In this document: one piece after another, positions 51,036 to 59,891 of the stretch
Layout: each line of letters begins with the position of its first letter
Numbering within the stretch: the first letter of the stretch is position 1
NCBI GenBank assembly: GCA_965153455.1
Contig: OZ234493.1
Coordinates: 15,924,213-15,988,212, forward strand
Length of the DNA: 64,000 nt
Direction of reading: 5' to 3'
Source of the DNA: Sphagnum compactum
Lineage: Eukaryota
Program-made: the position numbers and the translations under genes
The notes under the pieces: generated by a model
What the model was told of the DNA's origin: nothing
Seen by the model: only the letters and a program-made list of their open reading frames with translations
Database searches by the model: none

Positions 51036-54000
51036 TTCCAACCACGTTTGACGAGGACGAGCCTACCACTGTCTGGTAGGTTCGGACTATTGGATAGATG
51101 TCTAGCCTCTTAAACCTCCACGTGTGATTAGGTTCCCACAGATTTTATTTTTTTCACTATATTTCTCTTACTTAGGCCTACTTTGTTTTAAACACCCACT
51201 TTGTATTTCCTTTGGAACACATGCATAGGAAATTTTTTAAAAAATATTTTTGAGTCTATAAAATATTTTTATTTATTTATTAAATTTAATTGATATTGTT
51301 AATAAATTACCTAGGGTTTTCAACATTATGAAAAATAGCATCCTATTTCTATTAACAACAGACAAGATGGGACTAGGGTTTATATAGGGTTTGGGTTAAA
51401 AGGGACGAAATATGGGTTCAAAGGATCTTACTTGACATGTGATTGGACCGTCAGATTAGATATTTTCACAAGGGAGGAGCCCTCGTGCAGCCCACCGTTC
51501 TTTGCCTTTTGCACTATATCCACATTAAATGCATTATAGCGAATTTTGTCATCATATGAATTGTGATGAAATTGTGAATGGACCAAAAAAGATTAAATCA
51601 TAATGGATAAATGATTTTCGAAAGTCCAATATTGAGAATAAATGAGAAACAACATTATTTTTTCCAACAAATTTTGTTCCTTTTTTGACAATGTTTTGGA
51701 GAAAATAGGGGGAAAACATTTTTTTATAAAATAAGTTGAATTAATTTTGCTAAAATTTTGGAAAATCTATAAATTGAAGAGCAATGTTAGATATGTAGTT
51801 AGGTACTTAGGTAGGTTGCTAGGGTAGGTAGGCTAATACTTTAAATACATAAATTAGGTAGGATAATTATGTAAGTTAGGTAGGGTAGTTAAGTTACGCT
51901 ACCTACCTAAGTTAGAAAAAAATGATCATAATAATAAAATGAAACAAAATGTTGTATGTTGAAAATGTGGTGCAATTGTTCAAGACTTGTTTCCCAACAT
52001 GGAGGTGATGGGTTCAAATCTTCAACCTTGCAACATGTATATGTATGACAAGGCTAGGCCTAGGTTGCTGCTTAAAATACTTAGCTTAGAGCTAGGTTTA
52101 GTTAAGTTTGTTAGCTATCCTACCTAGCATAGGCCATATGCACACATGTCCCAATTGTGCATGGGACAAATGTCATCATATTTTATGCATACATTTACAT
52201 GGTTGGTGATTGGTGAGTTGTAAAAATAGTCACATGTAGTTGTAACCTTGGTGCAATTAAGCTTATGACATCCAAAACCATCAAAGATACTACATGAAAA
52301 ACATTGGTCAAATCATATGGAAGATGCAATTGTTGTTGTGATTGGGTGCCACATAATGTGCCATGCATAATCTTTTGTGACTAATGTTTTTCACAACTTT
52401 TTAAAGGTGATTGAACATTGTGACAGTCACATGTGATATTTGCAACTTAAAACTAATTATAAATTTAGTTGTTAATATGTGAATTCGTTATAATGGTGGA
52501 ACTAGTTTTTTTTTTGGGGTTAGATTTGGAATCAAAACTAAAATCATGAAAAAATATTTTTCAACATAGGGTCAAGATTTTGTAAGTATGAAAGTTGAAT
52601 TTTTTAAAATGTTGATAAGTATGTTGAATTTTATAGTTAATTATTAATTAGTTGTCGAATTCAATTCGTACATAGACCTTCATTTTAATTTGTTGTAATA
52701 CTTTCTACTCATACAATTCTTTGGGAATGCATAATGTGCACATGGAGTTAGATTTAGATTTTGAATTGGGCCCAAAGGTTTTTGAGTTTGAAAAAAATGT
52801 GTTAGAACCAAAATTGAAAGGTTTAGGAATTGAAAGAATTGGGTTAAACCTGCCCGTAATAAAACTTGCAACTAGATTTTGCATTGTCAAACTAAGATAT
52901 ATGGTTTTTATAAAAGGAAGAACCACACATCATTGATGAGAACTAATCTTTTGAAAGTATTTGGTTTGCAATGTTAAATCTAGAATTTTAGGGTCAAATT
53001 CTTATGACTAAGTTAGGACCCTTTTGTTGGTATCATCACAAGAACTAGAACATAGAACTAGCCTTTTGCTAGATTCAGAATCAAATCTAAAATTGTGAAA
53101 AAACATTTATGAACACAAGCTTAAGTTCTTTATATAAGCAAGTTGATATTTTTTGTGAAAAATTGACAAGTGAGCTGAACTTTATATTTAAATATTAGTT
53201 TAAATTAGTTGTTAAACTCTACATAGTCCTTGGTTTTAATTTGATACAAAGCTTTGTACATAAAGCATTTTGATAAAAATATTTTTTGCATGTGGAATGG
53301 GCTTAATGATTAATCCCATGAACTTACTTGGGCATTGGTTTCACTTCACAAGCTGACCCTAAAGTAGGATAGGGCCCTTAATTTATTTCAAAATGCTTTA
53401 TGAAAAGATAAGAGACCCCTTCCATGCTTCATAAGTTCTCACCCTTTCATTATCACAAAGGCTCAAACTTGTTAAACCCCTTAGGCCGGTGCCTTACCCT
53501 ACACGTAGAGGCTCTTGAATTTGAAATTGAAGGGTTTAAAGGGCTCAAACCTACACCTTGAGAACCTCCAACAAAATATGAAGTGTCTCAGCTGGGACCG
53601 GAGGTTCTCGTAAAAATGACGAACCACAGGACAACTGGTGAGAACCTCCCGAAGGTGCGGTCCGGGGGTTTCAGGTTCGGAAGCATTTGAAGGTGAAGTT
53701 CGGTGGGGCGATTTCTGGTTCGGGGATACACGAAGCTGGAGCCCTGGGAGCAACGAAGGAGTGCGGGCCACACACGCGGGAGAGGGTCGAGCACCAACAC
53801 TTAGCGCGCGGGTGGCTTAGTTGCTGCGTATCGGGCGACGATGGCGGAGACTTGATCCTTGTCCAGTCGGCCAATTCCCGCTTGGCTTCCGGAAGTCCTT
53901 GTCCTTCCCTGCTGCAAGCCATTGTAGGTAGGAAGGGAAGGAAGCTGCCAGACTTGTGGGTACCCATTCGTTTGATTCTTGAGCACTGCTGGAATAGGGA

Positions 54001-54186
54001 GAAGAGCAGCTGCAGATTTCACAGGTAGGAAAGAAGGAAGAGAAAGGTAGACAGCTGCGACGGACGGAAAGACTTGTGGGCAGGGCTGTAGGAGGGCTCA
54101 GGTAGGAGAGCGAGCTGAGAGAGCTATTAAACTCCCACAAACGCACCCACAGAGAGACGGAGAGAGACAGAGACAGAGAGGAGATT

Positions 54187-57100
54187 ATGGCGTGCGTAGG
54201 TCAGTGCCTTGGCATGGCCACGGGACCAGTTTGTCACCTGAAGCTGCAGAAAGACGCGCTCGTGTCTCTTTTCCCAAGGAAGTCGCTAGCACTCCGAACC
54301 CTTCTTCCTCCTCTTCTTCACCTGCAGCAAGGGACGGGAGATAATAATACTTGCAAAGGTGTAATAAGTTGCTGCAGCTCATTGTCAACAAGAAACCGTC
54401 CTCAAATTGTACGAGGAGTAATGGCCATGGCTAGTCAGGAAGGCGGGATTTCCACTTGTACGTGATCCTTAAACTGCCATCCAAATTCAGATAAAATTCA
54501 ATGTATGTGGTAGTCCCACTTCTCCTCCTCCTGCTCCACCTGCTCCTCCTCTTTCTCTACATCAGAATTTTTGAGTCTGCTTGGATTCTTTCTCTTTGCA
54601 CATTCCGAGCCTTCCTGCAGACTTTGCATTATGGCAATGATGGAATTGAGCAGACCTAGATGAGCTATCTGTAACAAGGTCATGTACTCCATCCATCTAT
54701 GTTACATGAAACTGCAAGACATCAGTCTCTAATAGCATGATGAGCTCCAGCTCTGGAAACCTGCAGGAAACAAATTGAAAACAGGATTTTATCAGTTCTT
54801 CATACTACACTTAGAGCAATTCCACTGGTTCTCAGTATGTGACCTTGCAAATTAAAATTGGATGAAGAAAAATCAAAATATGTTGGTATGGCTTAGCAAA
54901 ATGGTTTTAGCCCAGCACTTTTGCACACTTCACTGAGGCTGGTAAAAGGCACAACAAAGCCTGACACCTGCCAAAGATGAGTGTAATAAATATGATCTGA
55001 TTGCTGCTCCTTGTTTGTGATTAGCCAATCATAATGATTGGTCCAGGTGCTTTGCTATTAGTAGTCTCCCACCTATTTGCAGTCCCAGTTCTAGTTTTAT
55101 GGGTGGAGTTGAAAAAAACTCTTCTCAAATGACTAAATTTGCATGTGAGAAATATTTTTGCAGGGTCACAGAAATATGGAGATGCTCTAAATTGAGCTAT
55201 CCATAATAAGGTCATGTAGTCCATCTATGCCACATGAGACTGCAAGACAGTCAGTCTCTACCAGCATGATGAGCTCCAGCTCTGGAAATTAGGAGGAAAC
55301 AAAGTTGAGAACAGGATTTTATCCATTTCTTCATACTATACTTAGGTTTTTAGCCTTGCAGAGAGATAGATGCCCTTTGTACATGAATTCCTTCAATGGA
55401 CACCGTGATGATTAGGAGACTTGACTTCTGTTACCATGATGAGCTTATGTGTTAGAGGATGTAAATTTGAACATCAACCTCTTGCATTTGAAAAATTTCT
55501 CTCAATTTATTGGGTTTTTTTTGCATCCTATTCAATATGTGAAGTATAATTAAGTAGAAGTGAGGAATGGTAGGCAAGTCCATTGTATGAAGCCTATAGC
55601 ATGTTGGGATGTATAGCAGTAGACAGAATTACCAGATCGGGATGTAGCAAACTGGCATTGTAGAGATAGTATGCTGAAATGTGGCAAACCAGTATGAGAT
55701 AGAGACCTATTTGTATTCACTGGGAGAGACATCCCAATCAATTGCTGTGAGGTATAAGTAAGTATGGTTGCAGAGTGTAAAAACTTGGATGATTGAAGTA
55801 TAGCAAGTATTTGTATTCACTTGGAGAGAGACATCCCAAGCTTATTGCTGCATTGCATTTCAGTTTTTCAAACTTTGGATTTTGGATTTGCTGAAATAGT
55901 GTTAAAGAAGGTCTCAGCTGAAAATCCATGACATAGCATGCAAGATCGTGTATGGAGGTAGATGTTTTCTAAACAGTAACTTCCAGTCTTTATCCTGGAT
56001 GTGACTGGAGAAGAGTTTTTTCTTGAGCACTAACTTGAATTTCTGCATTGATTGTCATATGACGGAGAAGCTGTGTTGGGATGGATACAGTGGTGGTTCA
56101 AGAGGTGGAGTTTTTCTGGAAGGGTCAAGGTTCTGAAGTGCTTCTTTCTGGAGATTTTCTGAACTGGGAAAGTAAGGTGCCAATGGAGAAAGGACCCAAT
56201 GGTTGGTTTGTTGTGAAACAGGTATACCCTTTCCATCCAGCTTTATTGGAGCAGTTCTTATCAAGTATTTGGTTTATGAAAATTCCCAACTTCCAGCAAT
56301 GTGTGTTGACACTTATGCACCTGCCAAGTGAAGCTTTTTCTGAAGTGTTTGGTAGGTGGTTGTGGCAGAAGCTAGCCCCAGGAAAGTACACATTCAAATT
56401 CATTGTGGATGGGCAGTGGCAGCACTCACCTGACTATCCGCTTGTTTCAGACAATGCCAATGGCTTCAACAATGAGGTCCTTGTACCAGGTTTTTCTGCT
56501 GGCCCTACATTGAAAGTGTGATCTTGAAGAGCTCAGAAGGAGCCACATGTGCTAAGAGATGTTCAGCAATCTTAACACCCATTTTATCAGCTTGCAGCAT
56601 GATTGATGACCCTACAATGGCTGATTTTTTGGAGATTTGATATAATATTTGTGTTTTACAGAAGAACCATCAAGCACTGAAGCTGCAGGAAAGCAGACAG
56701 CCACTAATGCACTGGGATCTGAAACTGCTCCCCAATCAAGAACTGCAGAAACTCCTGCAGCAGCTGGGAAGAAGGTAGCAAAGACCGTGGCTACAACAGC
56801 CACTGCCAGCCCCACCAGAACTGCAGAAACTCCTGCAGCAGCTGGGAAGAAGGTAGCAAAGACCGTGGCTACAACAGCCACCGCCAGCCCCACCACTGAT
56901 GCTGCTTCAGCAAGACCTAAACCTGTTCCAGCAGCTGGGGCAACGAAGGTAGCGAAGGCAGCTGCAGTTGTAAAATCATTGCAGTCAACAGTGGTGGAGG
57001 ATGTGATTCCCGAATTGTCAACCTTTCTGAAGAAACAAGATGGCATTTCAGATGTTGAGCTTACTTTTGTTGACAATGAGGTATTTTGTCTTGCAGAAAT

Positions 57101-57991
57101 TCAAACTACAAATATCAAAACTAGTATAATATTAGCATTTCCAAACCTTGACTTCACATAATTCAGAACCCAGAATTGCACTGGGCAGAAGTTCAATATA
57201 GAAACATATAATATAGCTTGCCTAGATATAATTATCCTCAAACAAAGTGGCAAACGTTCTACAGCCCATGTGAAGAGTTGACAAGATTCTCAAGAGTTAG
57301 GCACAGTGCCTCAACAAAGACTATGAATGTAAGAACCTGCATAAGTCCAAAGGTTTTGCTAACTGCATCCAGAGTGCCATCAATGAGATGGGATGTAAGA
57401 GACCTGTATAAAGTCCACAAATGTCGCCAAGTCTACTAAAGAATGACTACATGTTTGGAGTTGCAGCTACAGGGATGCTTTGCAAAGAATGGAGTACCAT
57501 ACTCTTTTTGGGTATATTTTCCAGATGGCAAGCTTGAAGGTATGAAAATAACACCATCTCACATTTAATCCTGTCAGCCCTCTGAACAACTTTAGCATGT
57601 AATATGTTCAAGAGCACTCTGGTTTAGTGCATTGCAAATTAATAATTTGCAGAGTCTAATTAGCAATGTGGTCAAATTACTTCAAACCTCAAGGTAGGAC
57701 AATGAAAATTGCTGGAATCCCTTTGCAGTTCCCTGAAGGAGGTTGTTGCATAGGCAGCTGACAAAGAACCTCCTGTTCCTCTGATTTTCCTTAGTTGATT
57801 TTCATTCACTTGTGACCAATGGTGCGTGTATGGTGGGGACAGGAACCAGAGGCTTTTCAATTTCATCACATGGCTCTACACCCAGCACAATTGAGCCTTT
57901 CTTAATTGATGAGAAAAAAATTACTGGAGACCTCGTAGTCTTTTGGGTTTCAAAGCGCCTTTTCGCACAAAAACTTTTGTCTACAAATTGA
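54187..57991 (+). CDS. Putative plastid protein of about 387 aa: transit peptide, CBM48 (AMPK-beta-type glucan-binding), A/T/P/K-rich linker, NdhV/DUF2996-like domain; exons 54187-54457, 56091-56221, 56369-56489, 56662-57080, 57467-57539, 57843-57991
   Basis: CBM48 segment VEFFWKGQGSEVLLSGDFLNW...LAPGKYTFKFIVDGQWQHSPDYPLVSD..GFNNEV. NdhV-like segment VEDVIPELSTFLKKQDGISDVELTFVDNELQGCFAKNGVPYSFWVYFPDGKLEGTRGFSISSHGSTPSTIEPFLIDEKKITGDLVVFWVSKRL. All junctions are GT-AG; 1164 nt in frame. Confidence 0.82.
54814..55187. mobile_element. Tourist/PIF-Harbinger MITE in intron 1 of the CBM48-NdhV gene
   Basis: Termini TTA|GAGCAATTCCA and TGGAGATGCTC|TAA; interior homologous to 20241-20614 (ATGATTGGTCCAGGTG.TTTGCTATTAGTAGTC). 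Confidence 0.8.
56739..56894 (+). repeat. Coding 78-bp (26-aa) tandem duplication in the linker
   Basis: RTAETPAAAGKKVAKTVATTATASPT occurs twice, and the DNA copies are almost identical. Confidence 0.95.
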
Positions 57992-59891
57992 TATTTTGAG
58001 TTGTCCCTGATTGTTATCTCTTTCTTTTAGTAGCTTGAACAAAGTTCTGATTTTTTTTGTCTTTGCTCCAAAATGCTCACAAAAAGAAATGCCCTCTTTA
58101 TAAACAACAGTAGAGTTTCCAAATGTCTGAAGTGGGCAATAATTGAGCTGAAATTGTTATTAAGCTTGCTCCAGGTGGGACCAATTACAAGATGTTATTA
58201 GTACACTTTGGACTTAGGTGCATGTGGATCAGTGCTCGCCAACTAGGAATAAAGCAGTTACAGGCTGGTGCTGTGCAAGCATCTGTTTATACTACAACTA
58301 CGGTCACTATTTGGTGTTGCAGGAGCTTAAAGCCACCACCACATTAAGCTTTTCAGAAAGCAGTGCAAGACATTGCATGGTTTGGATGAATTACAGCATC
58401 CCTGAAGATGCTTGAAGTGATAGTTTGTTATGTTTGACAAAGTGAATGCTGTGGAAGGTGAGAGGAAATGGGAGTTGTTGAGACCATTTGTGTATGGGGT
58501 ACAAGACATTTTGCGTGGTTTGAAGCTTGCAGTACTTGAAAATGTTGAAAATTTTGGATTTGAGATATTCACCAGAGTGGGGACAATTTTTCAACCCATG
58601 CTTTTCATATGTTATGTTTGTGGGATAAGAGTAATTTTGTACAAATATGCATTTTCTTCTTAGAAGTATTCAATCTCAGTCAGCTCACCTTCACTGTCTC
58701 ATCATACCCTTCATGAAGGAAAAGGGGAAGGTGAGAGTGTAATCAAGTTGGATTCTGTCTCGACTGGCAAACTCCAGATCATCCCCTCTGAAGAAGAGAT
58801 GTTTTAAAAAAATTTAGGAAGAAAGTTGAAGCCACCTCTTATTCTTTTGACTGCAAAACAATGGAAAGGAGACAAATGACTAAAATCTTCTTCCAATTGT
58901 TGGCAAGAGTCAATTGGGAAGGTTGCAATTTACAAAGGCTTTGGTGGTTGATGTTGCAGAGAAAGAGGGTGGAAGAAGGATGGTGTGAAGTGTAGAGTAT
59001 GGCCATAAGGTGGGGGAAGCAGGAGGTGAATGGATGGTGCCTTCTGTTTCTGAGGAGGAATTATTAAGGTGTCATGCACAATGTCAATACAAAGGTCTTT
59101 TGGCCTGTTTTTGGTGAATTCCAGTCCAAACCAGATGCTCTTGAACTGCATAAGCTACAACCCCACTACTCATTCAAGAGTCAGTACACAAAATGAAAAG
59201 TTCCGATTCTTTGCAGTCACACTTCAAGAATGTTGCTAGAAAAATACAACCAAAAAAAAAAGAGAACAGAGATTTCACGACCTGGAAATATCACGAGTTG
59301 AGAGCAAAGATAAAACATGAACTCAGTTGGTTTCCTAAAACACACCAAATGACCAGAAGTTGTGCATTTTCATAGTTATGAATCAGCACACTCACAGTTT
59401 GTTGAAAATATCACATTTTGAGCAACAATGTCTGCAAGACAAAGTCCATTGTACAAACCAAAAGGAAGAGAGTCCATGAAAACAGAAGTTGAGCTCCAAG
59501 AGAAGGTATTAATACCCGGGGATGCAGACGTGAGATTTTCCTCTAGATCTTCTCAGTAGCCATCTTTTCTCTTTTCTATCACCCCACATCATAGATTACC
59601 ACTTGTTTCTTCTGCTCATACTTCATCAAGGCTCCATGATATGATGCTGGATGCCCACTTCTAATGCAGAGAAACTTTTTTGCAGAGAAAGTGTTGGAGG
59701 ATTAGGCAATAATACATCATCTATCTATCACACAAGCTGCTTCTGAGCTACGACTTTGCTCTCTCTTGGATTTGATTGAGAGCTTCATGCCTGGTTTTCA
59801 AGCTCAGGAAGTGATACATGTATTTGCTGCTTCTGAGCTTTATAAACAAGCAGCTTCTGATTTGGATCCTTGCATTTGGGCACCAATTCTT

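Follow-up and report, generated by a model that had tools for sequence, protein, structure and literature searches.

The stretch of DNA analysed here (the window) comprises 64,000 nucleotides of contig OZ234493.1 of Sphagnum compactum (assembly GCA_965153455.1, forward-strand positions 15,924,213 to 15,988,212), and all coordinates refer to it. Positions 54187–57991 of the plus strand hold a six-exon gene for a protein in which a CBM48 carbohydrate-binding module precedes a DUF2996 domain resembling NdhV, a subunit of the photosynthetic NADH dehydrogenase-like (NDH) complex. Joining the reading frames gave a coding sequence of 1164 nt, encoding 387 amino acids followed by TGA, and all five introns have GT..AG borders. 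The encoded protein is letter-identical over its full length to a protein that NCBI lists for Sphagnum compactum as ‘unnamed protein product’ (P0001).

Exon 1 (54187–54457) contains the ATG, encodes the transit-peptide-like residues 1–90 and ends in phase 1. Intron 1 (54458–56090, 1633 nt), which holds a repeat-like insert, separates it from exons 2 (56091–56221) and 3 (56369–56489), coding for the N-terminal and C-terminal halves of the CBM48, the latter with K144, W151 and N168. The boundary between the CBM48 and the linker is formed by intron 3 (56490–56661, 172 nt). Exon 4 (56662–57080) encodes a disordered linker rich in Ala, Thr, Lys and Pro, followed by the start of DUF2996 with its N-terminal helix and the first of its strands. 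The middle strands of this domain lie on exon 5 (57467–57539), and its C-terminal part, with K363-K364 and the C-terminal helix, on exon 6 (57843–57991), where the TGA occupies 57989–57991.

Transcription was assessed with stranded polyA raw reads from one RNA-seq run (X24) carrying the same species label as the window. All five joints were spanned: 54457>56091 by 15 reads with 12 different starts, 56221>56369 by 23 (16 starts), 56489>56662 by 26 (18 starts), 57080>57467 by 20 (19 starts) and 57539>57843 by 22 (18 starts), the first mate being on the minus strand at each. Exon depth was 17–36, and intron 3 had a depth of 0.73 compared to 29–36 in the adjoining exons. Among the places listed for this run, no pile-up of molecule starts or ends was seen across the gene. 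The transcribed region extends upstream at least over 54000–54186 (depth 21–23 from 54000, and a piece of a metatranscriptome contig covering 54003–54457), taken as the 5′ untranslated region. The 3′ untranslated region (57992–58400) has an approximate end, with depths of 19.8, 11.2 and then 2.55 across 57969–58400. Two intronless contigs from metagenome or metatranscriptome records (L001 and L002) contain the complete fusion open reading frame, sharing both its ATG and its stop, with 361 and 364 aa and 88–91% identity. Beyond residue 122 the protein contains no further Met at which translation of the DUF2996 part could begin separately. The junction reads across all introns, together with the intronless contigs, exclude separate transcripts, and the CBM48 and DUF2996 are confirmed to be expressed as one mRNA. 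The in-frame gene model of the initial annotation, which had been drawn from the DNA alone, was recovered with the same coordinates, and its 172-bp phase-compatible intron without an independent downstream start was borne out by the 26 reads that had been proposed as a check at 56489–56662.

A Pfam scan of the full-length protein at E-values up to 1 returned, as the initial annotation had expected, AMPK1_CBM/CBM48 (PF16561) at residues 96–175 (E = 3.8e-23, 81.9 bits, cut-off 26.8) and DUF2996 (PF11210) at residues 283–384 (E = 1.4e-18, 68 bits, cut-off 27), the latter complete as predicted, covering profile positions 9–119 of 120. The listing otherwise held two sub-threshold matches. When single exons were scanned, two of the five pieces matched, the CBM48 frame and exon 6 (DUF2996, 47.3 bits); exon 4 gave sub-threshold noise, and nothing was found for exon 1 or exon 5. 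No NCBIfam model matched P0001 or the collected proteins P0023, P0204 and P0150.

From N- to C-terminus the protein thus consists of a transit-peptide-like stretch, the CBM48, a linker and DUF2996. An AlphaFold2 model was built from 20 fusion sequences. The first 90 residues, which are poor in acidic residues (S+T 14, D+E 3, K+R 9) and modelled as disordered with a predicted local distance difference test (pLDDT) score below 50, look like a transit peptide. The low-complexity linker, annotated earlier at about 100 aa, measures about 105 aa (residues 176–280), is dominated by Ala, Thr, Lys and Pro, and shows no predicted secondary structure (pLDDT <50). Within it lies a tandem duplication on the plus strand (56739–56895) of two 78-nt units, repeating 26 aa in exact register (TRF score 307, 98% matches). 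This unit occurs as a single copy in L001, L002 and P0002 from related Sphagnum, so the linker varies in length among close relatives.

The CBM48 (residues 91–178) was modelled at a pLDDT of 83–93, and its fold is closest to the glycogen-binding modules of AMPK beta subunits (Z 15.8 and a root-mean-square deviation (rmsd) of 1.2 Å to 4yee_E; rmsd 0.9 Å over 81 aa to 1z0m_B), with SEX4 at Z 14.3. In rat AMPK beta1, W100, K126, W133 and N150 are described as critical for carbohydrate binding (PMC4032982). These correspond to W116, K144, W151 and N168 of the Sphagnum protein, in agreement with the glucan-binding residues claimed initially. Among the 24 fusion proteins with a near-complete CBM48, to which these counts are limited, the four positions were kept in 24, 24, 24 and 23 sequences, respectively. 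From this conservation we infer that the module would bind starch or a soluble alpha-glucan.

The resemblance of the C-terminal domain to NdhV, also proposed initially, was seen in both sequence and fold. The top sequence match of P0001 in the PDB was chain V of 6khi over residues 257–386 (E = 5.3e-15, 58.8 bits). In 6khi and 6l7o this chain, named ‘Tlr0472 protein’, represents NdhV in the NDH-1 complex of Thermosynechococcus. Residues 274–386 of the model superimposed on 6khi_V with Z 14.2 and an rmsd of 2.1 Å over 109 of 109 chain residues at 38% identity, and on 6l7o_V with Z 11.9. Since the Foldseek list was dominated by CBM48 chains, NdhV surfaced only on a second structural look, and the ESM Atlas returned only clusters of ‘DUF2996 domain-containing protein’ with scores of at most 0.82, which is a lead at most. 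The pLDDT was 80–90 over most of the domain and dropped below 50 at residues 346–358. A helix at 281–298, four strands and a helix at 367–380 were modelled, a layout that agrees with the one described for NdhV, where N- and C-terminal helices flank strands that pair with NdhS, and the C-terminal helix holds a hairpin of NdhI (PMC6992706). Ferredoxin is contacted by R122 and K123 of Tlr0472 (PMC7021789), and these align with K363-K364. Using group labels assigned by a crude rule on C-terminal motifs, the basic pair was counted in 21 of 26 fusions, in 122 of 122 proteins with a seed-plant-type C-terminal tail and in 22 of 22 cyanobacterial-type proteins.

At this site two gymnosperm proteins, P0150 of Ginkgo and P0162 of Taxus, read TIERK and SIERK where the other groups have a near-invariant IDE[KR][KR]; the D-E pair is altered and the basic pair kept.

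Several known systems resemble parts of this protein. The described NdhV proteins (Tlr0472 of Thermosynechococcus, Sll0272 of Synechocystis and At2g04039 of Arabidopsis, belonging to the electron-donor-binding subcomplex of photosynthetic NDH) have in common with it the DUF2996 domain, the fold, the basic pair and a preceding low-complexity N-terminus. They stand alone, whereas the fusion, a putative NDH subunit, has a complete CBM48 between transit peptide and linker. The closest CBM48 by sequence (E about 1e-14) as well as by fold is that of the AMPK/SNF1/SnRK1 beta subunits, in which the four glucan residues are also present. The beta-subunit module acts as a glycogen sensor (PMC2642990), and in both cases a regulator is equipped with a module of the glucan-binding type. 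The fusion, in contrast, looks plastid-targeted rather than cytosolic, and its partner would be an NDH subunit instead of a kinase complex; no C-terminal interaction domain of the beta subunit, for binding alpha and gamma, was found in the Pfam scan. The glucan phosphatases SEX4 and LSF1 are likewise plastid CBM48 proteins (PDB sequence matches at E about 1e-10), and no dual-specificity phosphatase domain was found in the same scan of P0001. PTST1-3 and FLO6 combine a plastid CBM48 with a coiled coil and bring partners to starch, and MFP1 is a thylakoid-bound starch-initiation protein. The fusion resembles these in that, as a CBM48 protein of the plastid, it could recruit a partner to starch or draw starch towards thylakoids. 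In the PTST family a coiled coil stands by definition next to a C-terminal CBM48, whereas here the CBM48 is N-terminal, residues 176–280 have no predicted helix and no coiled coil, and the partner is DUF2996. The lack of a beta-interaction domain, a phosphatase domain and a coiled coil rules out membership of the SnRK1 beta subunits, the SEX4/LSF proteins and the PTST family.

With P0001 as query, 25 proteins were found at E ≤0.001. Both Pfam domains were present in 21 of these; two had DUF2996 only (a Diphasiastrum model and a protein of the angiosperm Craigia, 59% identical over the domain) and two were bacterial CBM48 proteins. The Craigia protein as query passed 434 proteins, of which the 120 listed all had DUF2996 only and a length of 142–341 aa, those with a named source all being angiosperm. 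A profile of 18 sequences, compared to 1.84 billion representatives, matched 247 clusters at an E-value of 0.001 or better, and no second seed-plant group was seen among the 150 of these listed. When the 283 collected proteins were scanned with custom hidden Markov models, 26 had both domains. The fusion was found in the streptophyte algae Chlorokybus, Klebsormidium, Closterium, Netrium, Spirogloea and Mesotaenium, and among land plants in the liverwort Calypogeia, in Sphagnum, Ceratodon, Physcomitrium, Selaginella and Diphasiastrum, and in Adiantum and Ceratopteris. Stand-alone DUF2996 proteins came from Ginkgo, Taxus (partial), angiosperms including Victoria, the prasinophytes Pyramimonas and Nephroselmis, and a record labelled Diacronema. 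In the same collection the fusion was not found in Ginkgo, angiosperms or prasinophytes. Apart from the Diacronema record, the non-streptophyte algae among the named eukaryotic DUF2996 matches were all prasinophytes, some of whose plastomes carry ndh genes (PMC4194372).

A maximum-likelihood tree was calculated from 55 full-length DUF2996 domains, hand-chosen from 183, over 108 columns. It separates eukaryotic from cyanobacterial-type domains (100/99), unites the seed-plant stand-alone proteins in one clade (100/96) and roughly tracks the organisms, without a sign of an old duplication. The NdhV of Arabidopsis is described as a homologue of the cyanobacterial protein (PMC4916593), and for Brassica napus the name NDHV is given to a ‘DUF2996 family protein’ (PMC12801548). 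Because tree and taxon survey place the fusion in a single eukaryotic lineage with the stand-alone seed-plant proteins, it is very probably the NdhV orthologue of the moss and not an additional paralogue, to judge from the sequences compared. This alters the initial interpretation in one respect: architecture, single transcript and likeness to NdhV all stood, and what had been presented as an oddity beside a canonical NdhV appears to be NdhV itself. The taxon survey proposed at the time indeed recovered the same architecture, from Chlorokybus to ferns; a separate canonical NdhV, which it was also meant to look for, did not turn up in bryophytes in searches of protein records, no plant genome being searched directly.

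A number of observations weigh against the orthology and the NDH-linked function discussed below. A stand-alone bryophyte DUF2996, none of which came up in the protein searches, may be concealed within the clusters, which were formed at 50% identity. The seed-plant clade joins the moss, lycophyte and fern fusions on a weak branch of 80/66 over the 108 columns. The CBM48 label needs four changes on the tree, two of them forced by the starred branches, rather than one gain and one loss; one of the four is P0156, a CBM-less protein of 203 aa from a contig of 919 nt that adjoins Closterium. The identity of the angiosperm DUF2996 clade with NdhV is suggested by the papers cited and by its being a single clade, in a tree without the Arabidopsis sequence. 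One residue of the basic pair is lost in five of the 26 fusions, with NK in Ceratodon and one moss-like protein, SK in Physcomitrium, RP in Klebsormidium and RV in Chlorokybus. Finally, the stand-alone DUF2996 protein of the Diacronema record (P0160), from a haptophyte, groups with those of green algae and is an ill fit to a strict link with NDH.

This last record, assigned to Diacronema lutheri, could reflect contaminating DNA, a transferred gene or a function unrelated to NDH.

Exons 2 and 3 together measure 252 nt, equal to 84 codons, and are bordered by phase 1 on both sides, at the end of exon 1 and at the beginning of exon 4. Given these borders and this length, the CBM48 constitutes an in-frame cassette of two exons. 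As we read the comparison of sequences, the CBM48 was probably already joined to NdhV in the ancestor of the streptophytes, or became so still earlier and then disappeared from chlorophytes, and was probably lost before the last common ancestor of the seed plants, plausibly through loss of this cassette. The data point to an old fusion, extending from Chlorokybus to ferns, with the seed plants as the lineage that would have lost the CBM48. A protein of Diphasiastrum (P0022, 212 aa) corresponds to the fusion P0009 minus exactly the cassette part. Both P0022 and P0156 may represent cassette-skipped isoforms, second loci or annotation choices. The joint 54457>56662, which would skip exons 2 and 3, was not among the X24 joints listed, eight further joints falling outside that listing.

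For the function of the protein, we lean towards the reading that it is the moss orthologue of NdhV, a nuclear-encoded chloroplast protein of the NDH ferredoxin site, with an N-terminal glucan-binding CBM48 on a flexible linker. In cyanobacteria NdhV is a transient subunit that raises ferredoxin-dependent plastoquinone reduction dose-dependently and without which ferredoxin is not observed on the complex (PMC7021789). As a regulatory subunit that comes and goes, it is a natural control point. The DUF2996 part would dock on NdhS and NdhI and promote ferredoxin binding, as in cyanobacteria, and the CBM48 on its tether of about 105 residues would bind alpha-glucan, at the surface of a starch granule or in soluble form. 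Starch could then either partition or sequester the NdhV pool away from NDH, or hold NDH-rich stroma lamellae near granules. NDH-dependent cyclic electron flow would in this way be linked to carbohydrate status, with an effect that may go in either direction. Additions at the N-terminus seem to be tolerated, since residues of Tlr0472 before position 37 lie outside the aligned part of chain V and cyanobacterial-type homologues have low-complexity N-terminal extensions, reaching a total of up to 305 aa. A tether between starch and thylakoids, or a coupling of cyclic flow to starch status, had been suggested in the initial annotation, and we infer the same two options from the domain content. A bolder version, which we consider doubtful, is that in all non-seed streptophytes the ferredoxin-docking subunit and a working starch sensor form one polypeptide, so that the state of the starch granules would switch or position NDH cyclic flow. 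If true, carbon storage would be coupled physically and directly to photosynthetic electron transport, an arrangement given up by the seed plants together with the two-exon cassette.

Other explanations of the gene were weighed against this reading. That neighbouring CBM48 and DUF2996 genes were wrongly joined might be suspected from the CBM-less forms in some records (P0022 and P0156). The X24 reads over 56489>56662 refute such a two-gene artefact, the even exon depth, the absence of an internal start site among those listed, the whole frame on intronless contigs and the missing Met after residue 122 argue in the same direction, and the architecture recurs over many lineages in the 26 proteins mentioned, leaving it a negligible probability. 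A second explanation accepts the fusion and holds that its DUF2996 has left NDH, the protein being a scaffold of starch metabolism by a logic like that of PTST, with DUF2996 as an adaptor for some other partner. The range of DUF2996 is broader than NdhV (PMC12038448), a basic residue at the ferredoxin contact is gone in the mosses and early algae listed above, and proteomics of the photosystem I (PSI)-NDH supercomplex of Physcomitrium reportedly gave NdhS to NdhU and no NdhV (PMC11629750). The same text attributes this to an absent database record, however, and not to a failed search. The domain also remains 59% identical to the angiosperm protein and in the same single lineage, no other NdhV candidate was found for the fusion-bearing taxa in the protein searches, and the named non-streptophyte algal matches belong to the prasinophytes, some of which have ndh genes in their plastomes (PMC4194372), so that we regard a departure from NDH as unlikely.

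Alternatively, the protein could be a true NDH subunit whose CBM48 serves as a protein-protein or stabilising module, for example contacting NDH or PSI parts that were later replaced by new seed-plant subunits. The CBM of AMPK beta likewise packs against the kinase domain, entries of whole AMPK in the PDB, judged by their titles, place it inside a protein complex, and LSF1, a CBM48 protein with a scaffold role, is among the PDB sequence matches of P0001. The NDH subunit sets of bryophytes and angiosperms are also described as different (PMC8211685, PMC11629750). Retention of the four glucan-contact residues in 23–24 of 24 fusions, from Chlorokybus to ferns, is nevertheless hard to explain without a glucan ligand, and the long linker, modelled as disordered, would suit a tether better than a packed interface. 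We consider a purely protein-binding module quite improbable and prefer the reading of a probable NdhV orthologue with a putatively glucan-binding CBM48.

In the literature searched, outside which most subscription journals fall, no paper pairing CBM48 with NdhV was found, in agreement with the initial statement that no function was known for this architecture; an earlier remark on an N-terminal domain of NdhV from lower plants is possible. Papers on DUF2996 held nothing on a CBM48 fusion, and none of those listed for CBM48 and ndh dealt with plant NDH by title or abstract. Precomputed Pfam annotation in the database already shows the two domains side by side, so the architecture is not hidden; as far as searched, it is undescribed. 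Of the NDH subunits around the ferredoxin site, NdhV is the one understood least; it is loosely bound and is missing from the spinach cryo-electron microscopy structure. In the 2024 study of the Physcomitrium PSI-NDH supercomplex it was unidentifiable because the database had no record (PMC11629750). Databases probably list the Physcomitrium orthologue under the name ‘AMP-activated protein kinase glycogen-binding domain-containing protein’, which provides those working on NDH in this moss with a concrete NdhV candidate. Through the fusion, cyclic electron flow of algae, bryophytes and ferns could respond to starch status in a way that is open to testing. It is also a clear example of a domain being gained and lost as an in-frame cassette of exons.

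Some records in the collection carry unexpected names or lengths. The angiosperm DUF2996 proteins P0026, P0057 and P0059 (Theobroma, Melia and Citrus) and P0050 (Hibiscus) bear the source labels ‘Glyceraldehyde-3-phosphate dehydrogenase A’ or ‘HhH-GPD base excision DNA repair family protein’, probably propagated misannotations. In Closterium sp. NIES-53 the fusion (P0021, 670 aa) is extended by a reverse-transcriptase-type domain (PF07727), probably because the annotation joined a transposon to the gene.

Within the window, positions 54441–55175, mostly in intron 1, were covered very deeply by reads of either strand in each of the four RNA runs, with a contig depth of up to about 4400, and showed many loose ends and odd joints. 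A direct repeat lies in the same intron (54722–54774 and 55251–55303). The insert looks like a repeated, transcribed element, and the reads over it probably come from other copies.

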